A DNA stretch of 63,410 bases from a virus. The notes under the pieces were generated by a model, which had not been told where the DNA came from, made no database searches, and worked only from the letters and a program-made list of their open reading frames with translations. The stretch's first letter is position 1; each line of letters starts with the position of its first letter. Location of the stretch: positions 1 to 63,410 of the IMG/VR virus record IMGVR_UViG_3300012363_000003, one strand, 5' to 3'. The translations under genes and the position numbers were made by a program. This document shows positions 242 through 59,365 of this stretch, piece by piece.

Positions 242-300
242 GGGCGGGCGGGTGTAAAACTAAGCAGGACATCCGGCGAACGTGGCCCGCCCTTTATTAT
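242..300 (+). terminator. Possible intrinsic terminator after tRNA-Pro
   Basis: GGGCGGGC (242-249) pairs with GCCCGCCC (285-292) and is followed by TTTATTATT. The loop is long (35 nt), so this is tentative. Confidence 0.35.
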
Positions 301-318
301 TCGGTGAGAGGAAAGAGT

Positions 319-717
319 ATGTATCAAGAAGAGCAAGTAAGGCGGGGTATCGCGTTACTTGATGAGAAGTTACCCGACTGGCACAGGACCTTTGATCCGA
401 GTACGCTGAATGTGGGCAGTGCAGCTATGTGTGTTCTTGCTCAGGCGTCTGGTGGTGAATACGCGGATGGGCTAGTATTGCTTGGTCTCAGCGCAAGGGA
501 AGCACCAGACTACGGCTTTGCTATTCTACATATTCGTTTGGGTAATTGGGTGCCAGAGAGCGCCAAGCTTACTCAAACGTGGATAGTTCTGGAGTCTCGG
601 ACTCGAAGGAGCCTCGGACTCGAAGGAGTCTCGCCTCCTGAGAGCCTCGCCTCCGAAGAGCAAGAGGCAACGGACCTTCCAGCGCAACCATCGGCCAGGG
701 AACTTGTGTTGGTATAA
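319..717 (+). CDS. Hypothetical protein, paralogue A of a 3-member tandem family (132 aa)
   Basis: ATG at 319 follows GAGAGGAAAGAG. N-terminus MYQEEQVRRGIALLDEKLPDW matches the next two ORFs. The track ORF start at 178 is probably an upstream extension. Confidence 0.65.
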   Translation: MYQEEQVRRGIALLDEKLPDWHRTFDPSTLNVGSAAMCVLAQASGGEYADGLVLLGLSAREAPDYGFAILHIRLGNWVPESAKLTQTWIVLESRTRRSLGLEGVSPPESLASEEQEATDLPAQPSARELVLV

Positions 718-14282: not shown

Positions 14283-15473
14283 ATGGATGAGATTATAAAG
14301 TTTGTGCTCGGCGTGTTGGTGCTTGGGCTGCTGGTGGGGATACTTGCCTCCCTCTGGCCCTGGCACATCTTCCTCGCCTTTGGCCTTGTATTAATCGGTC
14401 TCTTTCTTGGTGGGGTGAAGCTGAGGTGGGAATGGGAAAAGCACCAGGTAGACATAGAGGCCAAGCGAAATAGGGCGCGTATTGTCCACGAGTCGGATAA
14501 AGGGGCCTTATACCTAGAGGAGGGTAGGATCAGTGGATATAGCCATGTACTTCCGCAGGCAAAAGTGCAGGAGAAGGCTAGCGGAGTTACAGTACCTATG
14601 CCTTCAAAACCTGGGTACCCCCCGGTCGAGAGACCCACGACACCAAGCACATTTAGCGAGTTGGTACGAGGGGGCTACGTTGCGCCAGGTTCGGATTTCG
14701 TGCTCGGATTTGACGAACGCTCTGAGCCAATTAGGATGTCCACCCTCACTTCTCTCGGGATCGGGGGAGGGCAAGGCTTCGGAAAGACAAGCACCGCTTA
14801 CTTAGTCCTGCTAGAGGCTGTGGTAAAGTATCGTGGAGATATTAGGTTCCTCTTAATCGACCCCCACATTGGAGTGGATGGGGAGGAGACCTTATACGCG
14901 AAAACGAAGGGCCTGGAGCCGTACTTCATGCGGTATGGCGGCTTACCGAACCCAACGGGGCTATACCACGGGGAGGGAGGGCATGTCGCTGGGTGGGTTC
15001 AATATTGGGAGAACGAGTTTATCAGCAGGATGCGCGGTGGAAAGGGGCCGATGTGGGTGCTGGTCATGGATGAAGGTGCGGCTGTGTTCTCTTCACCTGT
15101 TGCTGATGCTGTCAGTAAGCTCCTGGAGAACATAAATAGGCAGGCACGCAAGGTCAACATGTTTGCCATTGTGATCTCTCAGGAGTGGAAGGCATCACGG
15201 ACGGGGGGATCAGCGATGCGAGACTCTATCGTGACCTTCATGCTCCACAACATGCCTACCCGTATCTCTGAACTACTCGTGCCCTCGGATGTAGCCAGAC
15301 AGACACCAAGATTGCGTATAGGGGAGGCTATTCACTTCTGCCAGGGTACGGATAGGCGAGGTATGGTGCCCCAGGCGTCGGTGGAGGATGCGGAGAGGCT
15401 GGTGTCTCTGTACCGTCCCTTTGTTGATGGACTGGCGAGAGAGCTACCATTGCTGGGGGAAGGAAATGGATAG
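14283..15473 (+). CDS. Membrane-anchored FtsK/HerA-like P-loop ATPase (396 aa)
   Basis: Two N-terminal TM spans, Walker A GGGQGFGKTS and Walker B WVLVMDEGA. Confidence 0.5.
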   Translation: MDEIIKFVLGVLVLGLLVGILASLWPWHIFLAFGLVLIGLFLGGVKLRWEWEKHQVDIEAKRNRARIVHESDKGALYLEEGRISGYSHVLPQAKVQEKASGVTVPMPSKPGYPPVERPTTPSTFSELVRGGYVAPGSDFVLGFDERSEPIRMSTLTSLGIGGGQGFGKTSTAYLVLLEAVVKYRGDIRFLLIDPHIGVDGEETLYAKTKGLEPYFMRYGGLPNPTGLYHGEGGHVAGWVQYWENEFISRMRGGKGPMWVLVMDEGAAVFSSPVADAVSKLLENINRQARKVNMFAIVISQEWKASRTGGSAMRDSIVTFMLHNMPTRISELLVPSDVARQTPRLRIGEAIHFCQGTDRRGMVPQASVEDAERLVSLYRPFVDGLARELPLLGEGNG

Positions 15474-20272: not shown

Positions 20273-21019
20273 TTATTGCCACTCGAAGTCTATGGAGAGG
20301 TCAGCCGCCCCTACAGCACCCGTATCCGCATTGGCTATACCTGTTGTCGTCGCCCAGGCAATCCCGGTGGTGAAGTTAAGCCCCGCAGGAAAGGCGCGGG
20401 CGTAGGAACCGTTTGCTGGTATCTCGAAGACCTTGACTGGAGTATCCGTACCCACTGTCGGCGCACTGGCTTTGTTGTAGAACTTGACGAAACGCACGGC
20501 GGCATTGACATTAGCGATATCCACTCCCCACAAAACTCCCGCCGAAGCCTTTGTTGATGTTGCATTGGTACTGGCTGCTGAGATAGTGTGCGAAGGCGTG
20601 GCCCCACCCGAAGCCCCCGCTTGTGGAGTTACTGGTTGCGTGGCCTGCCAGAACGTACCCGAGACTGGCTGGGTTGCTTGCCAGAAGGTGCCGGAGACGG
20701 GTTGGGTAGCCTGGAAGAAGTTACCCTGGACAGAGACATTATTAAACTTAACAAAGTCGAAAATGCCCTTCAGCAGTTGGATTACGGACCAAGCGGTGGT
20801 TGATCCATCTGTGGCCTTTGTCTGAGTAGTTGTACCCAGCGTCAAGTTATTCCCATCTTTACTATAGATGGAGACGGGTGCGACGGGGTTTCCTGAGTTG
20901 GCAACAGAAGGACCACCCTCGGTGGGCGTTGTGGTATTTGTCCCAAGTGCTATCACAGACGCCAGAGGGATAGGGGTTGGGGAGGAGGCATCAAGTAGTG
21001 TTGCGGTGTATACAGACAT
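20273..21019 (-). CDS. Tail fibre-associated protein with 3 tandem 11-aa repeats (248 aa)
   Basis: Contains FFQATQPVSGTFWQATQPVSGTFWQATQPV. It directly abuts the neighbouring genes. Confidence 0.5.
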   Translation of the reverse strand: MSVYTATLLDASSPTPIPLASVIALGTNTTTPTEGGPSVANSGNPVAPVSIYSKDGNNLTLGTTTQTKATDGSTTAWSVIQLLKGIFDFVKFNNVSVQGNFFQATQPVSGTFWQATQPVSGTFWQATQPVTPQAGASGGATPSHTISAASTNATSTKASAGVLWGVDIANVNAAVRFVKFYNKASAPTVGTDTPVKVFEIPANGSYARAFPAGLNFTTGIAWATTTGIANADTGAVGAADLSIDFEWQ

Positions 21020-39664: not shown

Positions 39665-41125
39665 CTATGCATCTAAGTTGGCAAAAGGATCGTAATTATC
39701 ATGGATTTCGCGGTTTTGGGGTGAATTTTGGCTGAAATCCTTAATTCCGCCGAGGAAAAAGCCTGTGTAGTCGGGTCTAGAGGCTAATTTGCCGGCGAGG
39801 GAGAGACTCATTACATAGTCGTCATGCCCGGTCTTGGCTTCCATCTTGAGGACCTTCGCTGGGGTGAACTTGTACTGGAAGTGTTTAAGCTCATCAACAA
39901 GTTCACGGATCAGAGGGATGGCGATACGGTGCTCATTGAAGAGTCGAACCAGGCCATGCACTATGTCGTATTTCGCCTCGTTTCCTCCAAACTTGTATCC
40001 CTCAGCCGATATGTCCTCAAGGTCTTCCACAACACTCTCTCCCAGCGAGGTGGCATCAACGAGTGTTCTGGCTGAGTTGTAAGCATCGTAGTTAGCTCTT
40101 GTAACCGCCTTGTATGCAGCATAACCCTTTTTCTGCATCCTGTCGTGTCGAACCTGCACTGCAAGGCGTGGATCAGTCGTGTCCAGGACCGTCGCAACGA
40201 AGTAGTCGCGTATGTTCGCCAGGTCAGTTCCTTGCACATACCGATGCCCCCTCTGCACCCCCACCGGGTACTCTATTCGGCCTTCCTTCGTCTGGTATGG
40301 GTAGTTCTCGTATGCCCACTTGATGTCGGATGAAGAGAACACTGCGAGGTCCGAGTCAGCAAACTCAGCCAGATATTCCGTTTTCCAGAGGAGGCTATCT
40401 TCGCCGTACCGTTCTCGTATTGCAACCAGACGCCCTTTATCTGCATACGGGTTGTCAAGCGCCGTGAAGTGGAGGGCCTTTGACTTTCCTGATGTATCCT
40501 TCTGAGCCGCCATGTACCCGTCCTGGAAGTCTCCTTCACCAAACGGAGTGGATATGCGGATGATCCCTGCGTGCTCCTGCGTCGAGGTGACGTTGAACAT
40601 CGGCTCAATTTCGCGGCTGTGTATTCCATCTTTGAAGTATGCCGCCTCATCCTCGATCAATAGGTGGACCAGCTTACCACGGAGGTACTTAGGAGAATTG
40701 GCCCCCCTGCCGTGTACGTGCGAACCGTTGGCTAGCTGGATGTGGGGGAAGGGGAAGTCTACGGGCTTACTCTTCAGCATGACCCGCAGTGGCCCGGAGA
40801 AGTGCCTGTCTACCTCGTCATAGATGATCCTGGCCTGGTCGAGGGAGGGGGCGACTATGTAGACATGACGGTTGGCGAAGTGGAGGACGTACCACACAAC
40901 CAGCCAGGCAAGCAATACGGACTTCCCGAACTGCCTGCCCGCCATGATAACCAGATCGAAGACCCCGGACACAAAGGCGTTGAGGATTGCTATCTGTGCT
41001 TCGTGGGGTTGGATCGGGGTTCCGTCCGGCCATGTGAGGAAGGTCGTGATGAAGGTTACGGGGTCATCAAACGCGGGGTCAGTGGGTTTGAGTTTACCTG
41101 CCGACCGCCATTTGGTCGTCGCCAC
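39665..41125 (-). CDS. terL: Terminase large subunit (486 aa)
   Basis: Walker A AGRQFGKS, Walker B LLIEDEAAY and a C-terminal nuclease-type region. Confidence 0.85.
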   Translation of the reverse strand: MATTKWRSAGKLKPTDPAFDDPVTFITTFLTWPDGTPIQPHEAQIAILNAFVSGVFDLVIMAGRQFGKSVLLAWLVVWYVLHFANRHVYIVAPSLDQARIIYDEVDRHFSGPLRVMLKSKPVDFPFPHIQLANGSHVHGRGANSPKYLRGKLVHLLIEDEAAYFKDGIHSREIEPMFNVTSTQEHAGIIRISTPFGEGDFQDGYMAAQKDTSGKSKALHFTALDNPYADKGRLVAIRERYGEDSLLWKTEYLAEFADSDLAVFSSSDIKWAYENYPYQTKEGRIEYPVGVQRGHRYVQGTDLANIRDYFVATVLDTTDPRLAVQVRHDRMQKKGYAAYKAVTRANYDAYNSARTLVDATSLGESVVEDLEDISAEGYKFGGNEAKYDIVHGLVRLFNEHRIAIPLIRELVDELKHFQYKFTPAKVLKMEAKTGHDDYVMSLSLAGKLASRPDYTGFFLGGIKDFSQNSPQNREIHDNYDPFANLDA

Positions 41126-41847: not shown

Positions 41848-42317
41848 TTGACACCCAGGCACTTGCTGAGGGTTGCTGGAGTGACTAGGTGTACGTCCAA
41901 GTCCAGCCCGCAAAGTTCCACGCCCCCTGCCTTCACCAAGAACTCTGTACACATGGCCGAGCAGTCGTAGTGGCCTGGATTGATAAAGTAGAAGAACTTA
42001 ACGAGCGGATTGATGTTCGTGAAAAAGTCCACATACCCGTAAGTCGTGTGTTGCCGTACCAGTTCCTTGAGCCACGCCACCGCAGTAATCATGTCCTTGG
42101 CGTCCGTGTCCTCTACGCTCTTCGAGTAAGACCAAACCGCAGCATCTTTGAGGTCCAACGGCTTCTCGATAACCCCATCAATACCGGACTCGATCTGCCT
42201 GCCCCCACCAATGTCCACTGCGGTGTGAGAGAAGCGTGAGTGTGTCCAGAATGAGATCGCCCAATTGATGAGGTTTCCTGACTTGCTCTTATCATAAAAG
42301 ATAACATCACCTAACAT
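41844..42317 (-). CDS. NlpC/P60-superfamily, YiiX-like permuted papain-fold hydrolase (157 aa)
   Basis: GDVIFY...SRFSHTAVDIG (His) followed by HYDCSAMCTEFL (Cys). Confidence 0.45.
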   Translation of the reverse strand: MLGDVIFYDKSKSGNLINWAISFWTHSRFSHTAVDIGGGRQIESGIDGVIEKPLDLKDAAVWSYSKSVEDTDAKDMITAVAWLKELVRQHTTYGYVDFFTNINPLVKFFYFINPGHYDCSAMCTEFLVKAGGVELCGLDLDVHLVTPATLSKCLGVK

Positions 42318-42374
42318 GCATCTCTCTCCTTTGTATCGCCCAGCATCCCTATCTCCTTATATTAATCGGTCTCG

Positions 42375-42680
42375 TCAGCTTCCTACTACTTCACCATCCG
42401 CAGACCAAAGGAACTCCGATACTGGCAGGTGCATCCGACAACCCACACAATACGTTGCTCCATAGAATTTTGGGTCCCTCGCATACGTAGATGACAGGGC
42501 CTCTCCCATTATTGTTTCCACCCCACAGCGCTGGTGTATATACTTGTTCCTGAATGGCCGCACAAACCCCTTGACTAGCTCTTCTTCGGACAGCACCAAG
42601 TAGACCTCGTGTTGCTGCTGTGGTTCGCTATCAACACCGTGTCCGAGTCGTGGGTCTTTTGGGTCAGTAGTAAGTGCCAC
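42375..42680 (-). CDS. Hypothetical protein, first gene of the late operon (101 aa)
   Basis: GTG start after GAGGAGATAGG; contains HQRCG and CVGC. Confidence 0.5.
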   Translation of the reverse strand: MALTTDPKDPRLGHGVDSEPQQQHEVYLVLSEEELVKGFVRPFRNKYIHQRCGVETIMGEALSSTYARDPKFYGATYCVGCRMHLPVSEFLWSADGEVVGS

Positions 42681-43878
42681 CCTATCTCCTCGTCTGGTTT
42701 CTATCCTTGGCTTACGCTCAGGCTAAAGGTCCTATCTCACGGGAAATAATCAGGGAGTATTGTTCACGCAGCCCCCTCGCCCATTAAGCCTTACGACCCC
42801 GATAGCTTCTGCGACTTCCCGGCTAGCCCACTCATCGTGTTGGGAAATAATGGCTGGACTGTTTAACGTGATGCAGCCACATGTCCACGATCTACCAGCA
42901 GACTAGACTTTATCCGCCATAAGGAGTGGAGCGGGTCTACCGATTAAGAGATAGCTGGTCTCTTGGTAAAGCTGCCCATGCGCCTGGAAAACTCCTCCTT
43001 TTACCTCCCCTGAAGAGTCACACTGGCAAATACTCGGGGAGCCTTTTTACGTGCTATCCCCACTTATGGCCTGAGTACACGATTTCTACTAGTATCCTGA
43101 ACGAGGTCAACCGGAAACCCCCAAGAGCATACCAGCCGAAATATCCACCAGCAGACCAGGACATGATCGTACTGGCAGAAGCTAGCTGGCGTTATAACGT
43201 GTAGGCACCCCACGATCTACCTGTTCTTCTCAGCCTAGATATACGCCGACAGAACGAATATATCCTTGGCTCAGAACGGCACATGTCTCTGTCACACGGC
43301 CTGGCAAATATCTGGCGCGGGGATGGGGGTCCCTTAGACCCGAGGGGGCTTCGGACCAGAGGGCTTTCCGCACGCCAGCCGGAGAGAGGGTTCGTAAGTG
43401 AGTCTCATGCCCGCGAATGGACCGTACTTAAACTCGAAACTCTGCAAGGCTATATACCTTTACCTACACATACATTATACCATTTCTATAACCTATTTTT
43501 AATTACACTAGAACCACCTATAATCCCTAGTTTATTCAGAGAAATAAGAAAAGGAAAGGAGCCGATTAATATGTGGGGAGGGGGAGAGAGTATGGGCGAG
43601 CCTGCGTGGGAGTGGTTCTAGAGGTGGTGGTATTTTGAGAGACAAGTACCGGGGCGGTCGGCGCGGCAAGCTCAGCAATACCCGCATACCGTCTGCTTGC
43701 TTACTGTGGCTCTACAGGCTGGTCCATGGCATACTTATCGCCTCAACGGATGTGCTTATCCAGCTAGCGACCAGTGTACTGTGGACTGGCCCTGGGAGCG
43801 GGTCGGTGGCGGGCTGGAGCTTGAAGGCGTGATAGCACTATTATCAAACACATCACTGCTATGCTTGCTTCCATCGGC

Positions 43879-43906
43879 TTGACAGGCTGTGGGAGTGGCA
43901 TATCGT
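43879..43906 (+). promoter_or_regulatory. Sigma70-like promoter candidate
   Basis: TTGACA, 16-nt spacer, TATCGT. Confidence 0.3.
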
Positions 43907-44531
43907 GGCAATGGTAGAGCTTAATGCTATGGATTGGCTTCGGACCTACAGTATGGCTCTACAGGCTGGTTGAGAGGCAGTATCCTGAGAAGTGGGCTTG
44001 TGGCACTGTGGCCTACACACTGCAAGGAGGTGCTGTGATAGAGCAGCAGCATGTAACCGTTCCTATATAGGCATATGACATGAATGGTTGAGCTTATTGC
44101 CAGTATGCCTGGAATAGCTCACTAGAGACACGTAGGACAGAGACGATTAATAAGACTGCTACCAGGCATAGCTAGCATCACCCCTGCCTTCCCTATCCCC
44201 GCATATTAATCGGTTGCCTCTCTCTATTCCCTAGCAGCACATACTTGACAGATAGCAAAGGGTATAGCAGGAATATACCAATATGTAGCATAGATACAAC
44301 ATGTGCTCAATACTCGTGTAGACCAGCCTGAGAAGCGTGTTCCAGCGATTTAGGCAATTCTAGAATTCTAGTCACTACTGGTACTTATGTATGGCTAGGT
44401 CCTATGCTATTGATGAGCTTATTCCGCAATTGCTAGAATGAGGTCTGGAGTGGCTTTACACATCAAACCAGGACTAATTGGCTATGCAAACAGGACCTCT
44501 AAAGCATAGGAAAATAGTACCAATGGTCCCC

Positions 44532-44560
44532 TTGCAATAACTAGAATTTTCGCCTATACT
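44532..44560 (+). promoter_or_regulatory. Sigma70-like promoter candidate for the rightward early arm
   Basis: TTGCAA, 17-nt spacer, TATACT. It would give a leader of about 400 nt before the first CDS. Confidence 0.5.
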
Positions 44561-44964
44561 TGGAATGAGCACAAAAGCTCACGGGACTGCTGAACGAAAG
44601 CACCACTCAGTTCCAACCTTAACAACCGAATAGAACGGGTCCCAATGGCAAGCAGGGGTCAAGGACAAGTGAGAAGCGGTCGGTACATTCTTCCCTTCGA
44701 TACTTTCGAGAGTCAAGGTCCTAGCGGTTGGGGTTACGGATTGTACAGAGTGGCACACTGAATAGGTGCGCCCGGAATTGCACGCCGATTAGATGCTGCA
44801 CGAACAGGCAAGAATGAACCAGGAAAAACGCGGCATACAGCTACTACCTGGGTTAATGACAAGTAGGCAATCGCTGAACGTCGGTTGGCTATTCTTGCTA
44901 GTTATTGCGTGTGAAATGGCTACTGTGGCCGTTTCATAGGTTATAGCTAAGAAGGGAATTGATA

Positions 44965-45264
44965 ATGGCAACTTTCGGTCACAACGCATCAAACGAACGT
45001 GATACCCTACCAGCCAGCGACTACTACGCCGCTCTTGGCTGTCAGAAACAAGCAATCAAGATCACCCACACCTGTTCTATTTGTGGGTATGGATACAACT
45101 ACAAGCTAGTTGAATTCCAGGCAGATGGAACAATGGAGTGTGGACATCACTGGACAGACCTCGTATGTGGATTGAATGACCTCCCTGAATTTAGTTACAT
45201 CGGTGAGGAAGATTTATGTAGACACACTGCACGGCGCATTGACTGGGCAGCAATTCTCGACTAG
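44965..45264 (+). CDS. Hypothetical Cys-containing protein (99 aa)
   Basis: ATG 44965 after GAAGGGA; contains CSICG. Confidence 0.5.
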   Translation: MATFGHNASNERDTLPASDYYAALGCQKQAIKITHTCSICGYGYNYKLVEFQADGTMECGHHWTDLVCGLNDLPEFSYIGEEDLCRHTARRIDWAAILD

Positions 45265-45269
45265 GTTGG

Positions 45270-45317
45270 CAGATGCTGCGGAACGGCTTTCCAGGCGGTT
45301 CCGTGGTAGTGTGCTAA
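45270..45317 (+). repeat. R1, conserved intergenic RNA hairpin element
   Basis: AGATGCTGC-GGAACGGC-TTTCCAG-GCGGTTCC-GTGGTAGTGTGCTAA. Confidence 0.7.
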
Positions 45318-45359
45318 TTTGGCACTAACACGTCTCTCTAAGAAAAGGAGTTCGCACAC

Positions 45360-45695
45360 ATGTTCCAAGTCACGGTAACTCTGCCTGTCAAGCGTAACGA
45401 CGGGTATGACAATGGAGTAGCAATCACAGCCATTGAGCAAGAGATTGCTAAGACATACGGCGGTTTTACTCATCAGAACGTTTCTGGGGGCTGGTTTGAT
45501 AGTGATACGGGCCTGTTTTATGCTGATGAAAGTACACAAGTTTATACCTTTGTTGAGACTGAAGAGGCCGTGGAAGCGCTTCTGAGGCGGGCCGAGGTGT
45601 GGGCCTTGTGGCTAGAACAGATAGAACTACTTGTCACTATCTCTGAGGTGTCGCCGCATTTCATCAAGGGTGTTCGCAGGCCAATCGCTGCTTGA
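45360..45695 (+). CDS. Hypothetical protein (111 aa)
   Basis: RBS AAAGGAGTTCGCACAC before the ATG. Confidence 0.55.
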   Translation: MFQVTVTLPVKRNDGYDNGVAITAIEQEIAKTYGGFTHQNVSGGWFDSDTGLFYADESTQVYTFVETEEAVEALLRRAEVWALWLEQIELLVTISEVSPHFIKGVRRPIAA

Positions 45696-55814: not shown

Positions 55815-56036
55815 ATGGATAAGAATGTACTGATAGGGGTTAGGCAGGCAACCAAGGACCTGCCAACTGATGAGCTTATGTCATTCTACCTGATCGCCTG
55901 GGGTGGCAAAGACCCGAGGGGCACGGCATGGTACGAGAAGGTGAAGGGGCTATTCACGGAGGATGGTGGGACGAAGGTACACAGCGACGTACTGAAGGCC
56001 CTTGAGATCATCACGAGTGAGAGGATAGGAGCATGA
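55815..56036 (+). CDS. Hypothetical protein (73 aa)
   Basis: RBS GGAAAGGGGAGAGAT before ATG 55815. Confidence 0.5.
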   Translation: MDKNVLIGVRQATKDLPTDELMSFYLIAWGGKDPRGTAWYEKVKGLFTEDGGTKVHSDVLKALEIITSERIGA

Positions 56037-56884
56037 ACAAGGATAATGGCCTTGGAACAGCACTACGCTGGGTTCGCACTGCACAACACTACGCAGCGGT
56101 TTTCGCAGAGGGGCTGATCTTGCTTGCGTTTGCTATGTCCAGTGTGGATGTATCCATTGGGGGCAGGCTGGCAAGTATACCTTTGTTGGCGTGGATGTGG
56201 GCTGCTGCGTTCGCTTTAGGCATTGACACTTCGTTCATCCTGTCATGGATACGAGTGCGGGAGATCATACGGGACAAGAAAACGAAGAAGCGGCATCTTT
56301 GGTGGGCGATCCCATTGGCGCTAGGAATGGGCTTCATTGTGTTCCAGCCTGTCGCCGTTCAACAGCTACAGCAGTCAATGAACATTAGTTTCAACGCTGC
56401 CCTCGCCAACCTGGGGATAAACCTGAACGTATTAGTCTACGCGAGGAGCCTGGTAGCAGTGATGCTCGGCGCTGTTCTGGCGATGACCAATGTTGAACAG
56501 GCACCCAAGACAGATGCACATAAAGTTGTCCGGGTAGTGGCAGAACCAGTGGCAGAGGTGAAAGCGAATATACCCGCTGAGTTGCCAGAGAAGGCGGAGA
56601 GTCTGGTGAACAAAGAGGTGATAATGGCGAAGTTGCTGGCGAACCCAGGCGAAAGTATGGCGAACCTGGCGAAGGAAACAGGAGTCCCACGGTCAACCCT
56701 GCGATACTGGCAGCAGAAAGGGCAGTTTCCGCAGGGCAAACCGGACAAGCTGAGGTTAACCCTGGATACACTGCAAGACAACCCAGGCATTACTGACGAA
56801 GAGTTGGCGAGGGTACTATCAATTAGCCGACCGTCCGCCGCAAGGTTCTGGCGGTTGAAGGCAAAGGAGTTAGGCAATGATTGA
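56033..56884 (+). CDS. Polytopic membrane protein with C-terminal helix-turn-helix regions (283 aa)
   Basis: Four to five hydrophobic spans, then NLAKETGVPRSTLRYWQQKG and ITDEELARVLSISRPSAARFW. Confidence 0.55.
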   Translation: MNKDNGLGTALRWVRTAQHYAAVFAEGLILLAFAMSSVDVSIGGRLASIPLLAWMWAAAFALGIDTSFILSWIRVREIIRDKKTKKRHLWWAIPLALGMGFIVFQPVAVQQLQQSMNISFNAALANLGINLNVLVYARSLVAVMLGAVLAMTNVEQAPKTDAHKVVRVVAEPVAEVKANIPAELPEKAESLVNKEVIMAKLLANPGESMANLAKETGVPRSTLRYWQQKGQFPQGKPDKLRLTLDTLQDNPGITDEELARVLSISRPSAARFWRLKAKELGND

Positions 56885-59050: not shown

Positions 59051-59365
59051 ATGCAGTATTCTGAGTGCGGCAGAAAATGTAGAGAGGAATTACGGGCATT
59101 ACAGGCTGGTCAGTGTGCAATCTGCGGCAGGCGCGTCCATCTGGTTTTGGATAATGACCACGATACCGGGGAGGTGCGTGAGTTTTTGTGTAATAGATGT
59201 AACGTTGGGTTGGGACATTTTCAAGACAGTGATCTTTTGTTGGCCCTTGCTGGTGCCTATATTCGCAAGCATACTCAACGCTTGGATGTGTTTAAGCTAC
59301 CAAAGGAGAAGCCACGCAAGTACCCTATTGAGCCTACTACACAACCCTGGGATAATGTAGCATAG
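59051..59365 (+). CDS. Recombination endonuclease VII family protein, second copy (104 aa)
   Basis: CAICGRRVHLVLDNDHDTGEVREFLCNRCNVGLGHF. Confidence 0.65.
   Translation: MQYSECGRKCREELRALQAGQCAICGRRVHLVLDNDHDTGEVREFLCNRCNVGLGHFQDSDLLLALAGAYIRKHTQRLDVFKLPKEKPRKYPIEPTTQPWDNVA

Follow-up and report, generated by a model that had tools for sequence, protein, structure and literature searches.

Late-gene control is understood in only a few model phages. In lambdoid phages, the host-type promoter PR' stands apart from the late operon, separated by a leader with hairpin-plus-U signals (qut, tR'), and is constitutive, its transcripts meeting stop or pause signals that a phage function, Q, must overcome. 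The put sites of HK022 (putL and putR), two stacked stem-loops (∼70 nt) just downstream of a promoter that need no protein factor, and the nut sites of lambda, composed of boxA and a 15-nt boxB with a GNRA-like pentaloop, are short RNA modules of early transcripts. RNase III sites, recognized as ∼20–22 mostly paired base pairs in a leader or intercistronic position, are found in T7 (R0.3, R0.5) and in the lambda N leader, and in mycobacteriophages L5 and D29 early and late transcription diverge from a hub free of open reading frames (ORFs). Here we describe a 2.3-kb interval, positions 42681–44958 (‘the gap’), of a 63,410-bp stretch of DNA (‘the window’) that constitutes the complete IMG/VR virus record IMGVR_UViG_3300012363_000003 and whose terminal repeats point to a circular assembly. 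The gap is probably the divergent early/late transcription-control region of an uncultured soil phage, a composite of cis-acting parts: a conserved promoter at each side, a late leader with tandem hairpin modules, an early leader with a conserved hairpin, and a unique operator-like repeat (Table 1).

The gap separates two gene blocks of opposite orientation. Structural and packaging genes on the minus strand span ∼17 kb to 42.68 kb (TerL at 39665–41125), and small genes on the plus strand start at 44959/44965, the first of them probably at the ATG at 44965. The phage belongs to a lineage without a cultured relative: TerL is less than 30% identical to its best cultured-phage match, a blastn search of the region against cultured phages gave no match, and no prophage relative was present among 185,579 species genomes searched with TerL both as a single sequence and as a profile. 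IMG/VR yielded no relatives of the early 235-aa protein. Among uncultured viruses, L002 (TerL 89% identical) spans the whole gap, similarity to L003 reaches window position 43310, and the late side is covered by L034 (TerL ∼71–74%) and L137 (TerL 74%); the early leader is thus covered by L002 alone, and the late module is found in four phages. When metagenomes were scanned with a conserved pattern of 22 bases, the only matches were L002 again and one copy 100% identical to the window. The region is present unchanged in soil metagenome runs of five studies, in contigs identical to the window and free of variants.

A reading made earlier from the sequence alone (the sequence-only reading) had described the gap as lacking a credible gene, and this is borne out in all six frames. 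With a 3-periodic Markov model for which 40 long ORFs of this genome served as training set, the score stays at or below 0.009 bits/nt between ∼42700 and 44950 in every frame, and all gap ORFs of at least 30 aa score negative, compared with 0.04–0.09 for the flanking genes; discrimination by this model is weak, true genes scoring 0.043 ± 0.041 bits/nt. Neither the 92-aa nor the 112-aa ORF of the gap has a match in Pfam or PHROGs, the larger (43283–43621, the largest ORF of the gap) aligns with L002 only through an in-frame stop codon, and accepting the two weak ORFs as genes would still leave here the largest gap in the genome. The six frames do not differ in their similarity to L002, and the best-conserved part contains indels of 1 and 10 nt, which are not multiples of three; the micro-ORFs that had been offered as one explanation are accordingly unsupported. 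The left boundary at 42681 is right, since the first late ORF (42680..42375, minus strand) has a good Shine-Dalgarno (SD) sequence, GAGGAG, ahead of its GTG start. Intact genes in relatives, which the sequence-only reading had named as a refutation, are lacking at this place in the two relatives that cover the spacer, both of them ORF-poor there: the equivalent interval is ∼1.7 kb in L002, and in L137 no ORF occurs over at least 1.2 kb.

The best promoter-like site of the gap, missing from the sites listed in the sequence-only reading, lies on the minus strand and is the predicted late-operon promoter. Its positional homologues read TTAAAA/TATAAT in L002, TTAAAT/TATAAT in L034 (with TGn) and GTAAAA/TATACT in L137. 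The pattern (T/G)TAAA(A/T)-17-TATA(A/C)T thereby recurs at the same position in four phages, three of them with the TGn extension, and the hexamers and their spacing are kept in L034 and L137, where the spacers have diverged. A consensus scan of 2.5 kb of L002 gives exactly two promoter-like sites, the positional homologues of both window promoters, and no further minus-strand site was found by such a scan within 42681..43467 of the window. The AT-rich block noted earlier at 43441–43560 is real (GC content 0.31 vs. 0.53 for the genome) and is explained by the conserved late promoter that it contains. Downstream, the untranslated late leader varies in length (∼320 nt in L002, ∼770 nt in L034, ∼140 nt in L137). 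Its promoter-proximal hairpin is flanked by a 29-nt block identical in L002; one pair is U·G in the window and U-A in L002 and pairs on the minus strand only, and the folding energy is unexceptional (z-scores of −0.2 and −1.4). This hairpin, like the modules described below, ends in UAUUU. L137 has no canonical module, and between its promoter and first gene lies a hairpin of −22 kcal/mol (z −3.6) with a U-rich tail.

The late leaders of four phages carry 1–3 copies each of a hairpin module of ∼55 nt, composed of RUCGUG, 6–17 nt, a 6-bp stem, the loop AnCACGUWAAAnn-GNC, the return stem, 1–3 nt, and UAUUU(C/G). Seven copies occur in the four phages. The window has A, B and a decayed C, L002 a single copy, L003 one and a half, and L034 three. 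The loop of 16–18 nt, AnCACGUWAAA...GNC, is invariant and the 5' box AUCGUG is conserved, and four different stems are set on this loop: UGGCUG/CAGCCA, GGCAAG/CUUGCC, UGGGGA/UCCCCG and GAGAGG/CCUCUC. Each stem pairs at 6 of 6 positions with its own partner and at 2–4 of 6 with the others. Copy A is 96–100% conserved in L002 and L034, where the flanks diverge, and its counterpart in L003 has the stem GGCAAG/CUUGCC. Copy B is 92% identical to positions 1409–1468 of L034, located elsewhere in that leader. A covariance model of the A-type modules, R1, gives copy A 80.9 bits and matches copy B weakly (3.2 bits); on copy C it finds 43177–43220 (8.9 bits, E 0.029 in a 921-nt stretch). Pairing is also possible between a triplet ahead of the stem and the bases that close the loop (A type, GAC/GUC; B type, GCC/GGC; second copy of L034, CCAU/AUGG); the covariation at homologous positions is suggestive of a pseudoknot of 3–4 bp to the 5' side. 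The CGUG and CACG boxes could pair as well, but not together with this covarying GNC/GNC pairing.

Relative to L002 and L003, the window contains an insertion of 314 nt that holds copy B and most of copy C. The repeats at its boundaries are the direct repeats CCACGATCTACC (the reverse complement of GGUAGAUCGUGG) of the sequence-only reading, which are real and prove to be the 5' parts of the repeated hairpin module. The insertion is thus bounded by module 5' boxes, which indicates that the array evolves by recombination between copies.

A scan of IMG/VR with a degenerate pattern of the module gave ∼100 matches, all of them chance except L034; the best look-alike (L060/L049) was rejected, being the terminal part of a coding sequence. 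With 3 mismatches, copy A (window 42845–42890) is found in contigs of 441–454 nt from soil runs X3 and X5. The flanks of these contigs are unlike the window, with a second GGCTTAACGTGAC loop motif on one side and TTAATCGG on the other, and the sequences probably derive from a further, unsampled relative.

On the opposite side, the early promoter has a positional homologue in L002 with the hexamers TTGAAT and CATAAT and an unrelated 17-nt spacer. Of the three promoters named in the sequence-only reading, only this one (44532) is kept in L002; those at 43879 and 44410 are not conserved. TTGACA at 43879 was rejected as a promoter, as it forms the loop of a decayed R hairpin (see below), and the site at 44410–44439 was rejected as its TAGAAT (44434–44439) belongs to an operator-like site deleted in L002. 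This site is one of three exact occurrences of GCAAT-N1-2-CTAGAAT in the 63-kb genome (0.00 expected), all on the plus strand and within 194 bp; with one mismatch allowed, there are four sites genome-wide vs. 0.23 in shuffled sequences. As judged from position and uniqueness, the triple repeat is likely the operator of the early promoter. The conserved block that precedes the promoter, and that contains the repeats CAAACCAGGAC (44464) and CAAACAGGAC (44487), is not conserved in a frame-specific manner, and 44305–44530 gave no convincing signal of RNA structure (z −2.1 forward, −0.4 reverse). With two conserved divergent promoters and a unique three-copy operator-like repeat lying on the early one, a regulatory or immunity switch is the best supported of the explanations that had been listed for the gap.

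The early leader is 74–80% identical to L002, conserved blocks (up to 19 nt) alternating with two variable inserts. Its best-defined part is the terminal hairpin R0, which has folding z-scores of −6.3 in the window and −5.8 in L002. Between the two phages there are three compensatory and three one-sided changes in R0 and no pair is broken, which holds also for the structure predicted from the window only. Six further hairpins confirmed by a covariance model, the R hairpins, lie between 45266 and 48104, where they follow six of the next early genes. The model, built from these six downstream hairpins (consensus of 22 pairs), gives R0 of the window 15.3 bits and its L002 homologue 14.8 bits, and R0 can therefore be regarded as a distant member of the R family. 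The R hairpins closely follow stop codons, and R0 closely precedes the first SD; in R and R0 alike, lower stems and flanks are conserved in sequence (GAUGCUGY...RUGGUAGUG). One more match of the R model, at 20550–20597 on the plus strand (16.5 bits, E 0.019), lies inside the minus-strand late region, far from the early operon.

Elsewhere in the early leader, compensatory changes occur in the helices 44639–45/44728–34, 44779–82/44797–800 and 44808–15/44891–98, and in a 4-bp pairing of 44617–20 with the SD; these additional helices were selected by looking at the two sequences together, and a global fold is not borne out by an unbiased test. The consensus fold of the leader is better on the plus strand (z −7.8 vs. 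−4.9). Both leaders have more G than C on their proposed sense strand. The invariant CAACCG (44623–44628) can pair with either of two sequences that are also invariant, CGGUUG (44725–44730), which overlaps the 3' arm of the covarying helix 44639–45/44728–34, or CGG(A)UUG (44741–44747), and these could be alternative pairings.

The two promoters are separated by a spacer of ∼1 kb (43503–44531), which contains a 24-nt inverted repeat that had gone unlisted, its arms 88% complementary and enclosing 604 nt. The arms are extended copies of CCGATTAAT, a motif with 18 exact copies in the genome and 36 matches at one mismatch (8.6 expected); the excess is genome-wide, and the gap, in and near which the sequence-only reading listed copies or variants, contains only 2 exact copies. 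In L137 both arms and the copy before the first late gene read CCGATTAAC, the form that L034 also uses. A motif that changes in step in all its copies would fit a protein-binding site better than an RNA helix. The 5' flank of the 18 exact copies is rich in purines and their orientation relative to genes is mixed; 6 of them are directly followed by ATG (the last overlapping it). Ahead of its first conserved late gene, every relative has CCGATTAA(T/C) followed by an A-rich run and an SD (window 42361–42369, minus strand; L002 2155; L003 193; L034 1483; L137 1197); the site ends in ...AAT in the window, L002 and L003 and in ...AAC in L034 and L137, and the other copies of L137 change alike.

The interior of the spacer shares only islands of similarity with L002, contains the repeats D1 and D3, and has more G than C on the plus strand, as do the early genes. 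The R model finds weak plus-strand matches in it at 43702–43731, 43771–43820, 43861–43904 and 43955–43967. The word ATGNWTGAGCTTAT has 18 sites in the genome at up to 2 mismatches (2.3 expected), 16 of them on the plus strand; four plus-strand copies lie in the spacer, two exact or with one mismatch and two with two mismatches. Its sites include 14283, 51138, 43911, 44084 and 44409, and it is read in frame as (M/I)DELI both within genes and at the two ORF starts, 14283 and 51138. The sequence features listed in the sequence-only reading are all present, some of them 1–2 nt off: two copies of the R-element loop lie at 43707 and 43954 (given as 43705 and 43953) and the direct repeat CCACGATCTACC at 42885 and 43210 (given as 42884 and 43209). 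A 9-bp inverted repeat (44104/44162) was rejected, being at chance level and not conserved. Alternating purine-pyrimidine tracts (GT/GC-rich) occur in the spacers of L002 (1217–1262) and L137 (340–430), with a weak trace in the window. Our reading of the spacer is that of mostly drifting DNA with relics of early-region modules; a role at the DNA level, in looping, replication or packaging, is a less likely alternative.

Table 1. Features of the gap and its borders, in window coordinates.
Feature	Position	Strand	Description
Late leader	42681..43467	-	∼790 nt, untranslated, of the packaging/structural operon; ends at SD GAGGAG and GTG
Module copy A	42842..42895	-	AUCGUG-GAC-AUG; stem UGGCUG/CAGCCA; loop CAUCACGUUAAACAGUC; tail UUAUUUC
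Window-specific insertion	42896..43209		314 nt, absent from L002 and L003; bounded by module 5' boxes; contains copy B and most of C
Module copy B	43025..43087	-	AUCGUG, N17; stem UGGGGA/UCCCCG; loop UAGCACGUAAAAAGGC; tail GAGUAUUUG
Decayed module copy C	43140..43220	-	5' box and CACGUUAUAA loop left; stem lost
Promoter-proximal hairpin	43305..43378	-	CUGGCGUG...CGCGCCAG, then AUAUUUG
Late-operon promoter (predicted)	43502->43474	-	TTAAAA-17-TATAAT, TGn extended -10, sigma-70-type; predicted start near 43467
Inverted repeat, left arm	43562..43585	+	extended genome-wide motif (CCGATTAATATGTGGGGAGGGGGA); kept in L002 (1771–1779 region) and L137 (∼975–995)
Spacer interior	43586..44189		fast-evolving; ∼170-nt internal duplication; decayed plus-strand R-type hairpins
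Inverted repeat, right arm	44190..44213	-	CCGATTAATATGCGGGGATAGGGA read on the minus strand; L137 has CCGATTAACAGGTGGGG at 524
Conserved block upstream of early promoter	44305..44531		at least 80% identical to L002; perfect runs of 20 and 21 nt
Operator-like site O3	44354..44366	+	GCAATTCTAGAAT; one mismatch in L002
Operator-like site O2	44426..44439	+	GCAATTGCTAGAAT; lost in L002 by a 10-nt deletion
Early promoter (predicted)	44532..44560	+	TTGCAA-17-TATACT; predicted start ∼44564–44567
Operator-like site O1	44534..44547	+	GCAATAACTAGAAT; overlaps -35 hexamer and spacer of the early promoter
Early-operon leader	44565..44964	+	∼400 nt, untranslated; 5'-terminal hairpin 44566–44581
Hairpin R0	44899..44949	+	irregular, 22 bp; ends just before SD GAAGGG (44951–44956)

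Three other explanations of the gap were weighed. It is unlikely that the spacer is a DNA-level element (an origin of replication, or a pac or cos site with the modules as sites for the small terminase subunit), a proposal to which the location directly upstream of the terminase operon, the repeated elements and AT-rich block, the bracketing by inverted copies of a genome-wide motif, the alternating purine-pyrimidine tracts of L002 and L137 and the minimum of the cumulative GC skew near 43000–43300 all lend some weight. The skew switch, however, coincides with the switch in transcription direction, the AT-rich block is accounted for by the conserved promoter, and fully compensatory stems such as those of the modules are unexpected for double-stranded protein sites. 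The origin suggested in the sequence-only reading is neither supported nor excluded: the gap contains no DnaA box, and its repeats are the hairpin modules, the operator-like sites and the ∼170-nt duplication. Less probable still is decayed coding DNA, whether former small early genes with their intercistronic hairpins or micro-ORFs. The decayed plus-strand R-type hairpins at 43702–43967, the four spacer copies of ATGNWTGAGCTTAT (a word that opens the ORFs at 14283 and 51138), the base composition, which is like that of early genes, and the extra ∼170-nt duplication of the window speak for it, but this account is tenable only for the interior, ∼43690–44300. Conservation of the modules, the early leader and the promoter-proximal blocks far exceeds that background, intact genes are missing there from both L002 and L137, and neither the frame-independent conservation nor the indels of 1 and 10 nt suit former genes.

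Very improbable, finally, is one or more large structured noncoding RNAs standing alone, the main candidate being a plus-strand RNA of ∼650 nt (43562–44213) closed by the 24-nt inverted repeat. On the plus strand, where G exceeds C, 43555–44220 does fold (z −3.5) with its ends paired, and a U·G of the closing helix is U-A in L002 and pairs on that strand only; the equivalent segments of L002 and L137 likewise have low z-scores, −4.6 and −4.5. The preferred strand of the bracketed segment nevertheless differs among the three phages, L002 giving ∼−4.6 on both and L137 folding better on the late strand, the interior is poorly conserved, with duplications and deletions, no conserved plus-strand promoter lies upstream, and the arms are a motif with 18 genome copies, all changing in step, for which a protein-binding site is the better fit. 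In Rfam, a check that the sequence-only reading had proposed, only tRNAs reach the gathering score in the window; 42300–45400 has no match on either strand even at E≤5, and the regions of the relatives have none besides a spurious mir-297 match on a GT-rich tract, one of their purine-pyrimidine tracts. GOLLD, ROOL, raiA, HEARO, group I/II introns, riboswitches and C4/CI-type phage RNAs were all without a match. Of the large structured RNA proposed earlier, what stands is structure in cis-acting parts of two mRNA leaders; a stand-alone GOLLD- or ROOL-like RNA does not.

Several observations weigh against a divergent control region as well. Thermodynamically the modules are unremarkable (z from −0.03 to −2.5, and +1.5 for one copy), their loops are large, unlike those of classical terminators, and the late strand of the window has no canonical terminator. 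The sequences behind the covariation are few, with one relative for the early leader and four phages with the late module. Without R0, the early leader has a modest folding signal that is not strand-specific (z −2.5 forward, −3.5 reverse), and the minimum free energy structure predicted from the window only is mostly broken in L002 outside R0; we therefore claim no global fold, and the leader as modeled is a conserved one with one proven hairpin rather than a defined 400-nt structure. In L002, O1 differs, O2 is deleted and only O3 is kept, with one mismatch, a pattern that different immunity specificities would produce, as would weak constraint. The distant relatives L007 and L139 have a large co-directional gene upstream of the terminase operon, not a gap. 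None of the runs that contain the region is an RNA run. The genome encodes neither a detectable Q-type antiterminator nor a detectable sigma factor: the Q-family models PF06530 and PF03589 had no match in six frames of the whole 63-kb genome at E≤1, and the Q, Antiterm, sigma70_r2 and sigma70_r4_2 families were all without a match.

Among 20 early-region proteins, Pfam identifies one helix-turn-helix (HTH) protein, a DUF932 protein, an endonuclease VII and a NUMOD-like domain, and no classical repressor. The HTH protein (283 aa, 56033–56884, plus strand) has two C-terminal helix-turn-helix motifs (HTH_24, MerR-like) and, as the sole clear DNA-binding protein of the 20, is a candidate for the factor that binds the operator or the genome-wide motif. 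A further candidate for the operator is the Cys-rich product of the first early gene (44965–45264). The endonuclease VII gene lies at 59051–59365. In L034, an ORF of 122 aa (266–634, minus strand) adjoins the late promoter and diverges from it; an endonuclease VII-type motif, CxxCG...DHNHD...CxxCN, was read in it by eye.

The sequences show that the gap lacks genes and is conserved, that its promoters have their hexamers, that the module stems covary and that the operator-like repeat is unique; transcription itself, and every step of the following mechanism for a divergent control region, is inferred. Leftward, a host-type sigma-70 promoter would feed a long untranslated leader that leads into the operon of small genes, terminase and portal, and the late modules may stop or pause transcription conditionally, or may bind a phage factor. 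Late genes would then be expressed only once that factor has been made, in a form of gated termination or antitermination. Rightward, the GCAAT-N1-2-CTAGAAT repeats may be the operator of a repressor or autoregulator, and the early transcript would open with the ∼400-nt leader whose R0 hairpin, adjoining the ribosome-binding site, could be a processing site of the double-strand-specific RNase III type or a site of translational control. Between the two would lie the ∼1-kb spacer, bracketed by inverted CCGATTAAT copies. A bolder proposal, which we regard as possible and rather doubtful, is that the module represents a new class of cis-regulatory RNA, with a covarying stem, a pseudoknot and a U-rich tail, that acts as a tandem factor- or ligand-responsive terminator to time late genes, and that forms, with R0/R and the early leader, an RNA-centred switch lacking a recognisable Q, N, sigma or CI-type regulator.

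If the parts work as proposed, they are concrete, testable components of a new early/late switch, in a lineage without a recognisable antiterminator, sigma factor or repressor. Two RNA motifs could then be added to family databases and, for annotators, the 2.3-kb ‘hole’ would be regulatory and not a missed gene. A gene-free divergent hub with folded leaders is a familiar type of region; its parts here match no catalogued family, and the multi-copy late module, the R0/R family and the three-site operator are undescribed in the sources searchable here.

The late side resembles the lambdoid PR'-qut-tR'/Q arrangement, with a host-type promoter set apart from the late operon by a leader with hairpin-plus-U signals, and the logic that we propose is that of PR'-tR', a constitutive promoter whose stop or pause signals a phage function must overcome. 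In contrast to the lambdoid system, there is no Q-family gene, the promoter has no adjacent gene, and a much longer leader carries 1–3 hairpins with a conserved 16–18-nt loop rather than one canonical terminator. With HK022 put and lambda nut, the modules share the format of short, multicopy cis-acting RNAs downstream of a promoter, comprising a linear box and a hairpin of variable stem. They differ in lying in the late leader, not the early one, in having no sequence similarity to those sites, and in a possible pseudoknot; whereas put has its two stacked stem-loops close to the promoter, each module is predicted to form a single 6-bp stem with a large loop, 240–620 nt from the promoter, and the AUCGUG box and CACGUWAAA-core loops are unlike boxA and the boxB pentaloop of nut. 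The overall plan recalls mycobacteriophages L5 and D29, in which back-to-back promoters and hairpin-rich untranslated leaders likewise meet at an ORF-free early/late divergence, although there is no sequence or family relationship to them and the spacer of ∼1 kb is unusually long. On the early side, R0 and the R hairpins parallel the RNase III sites of T7 and the lambda N leader as irregular hairpins of ∼22 bp before the first early gene and between cistrons, and by their predicted pairing and position they have the characters of such sites; they differ from them in the conserved sequence of their lower stems.

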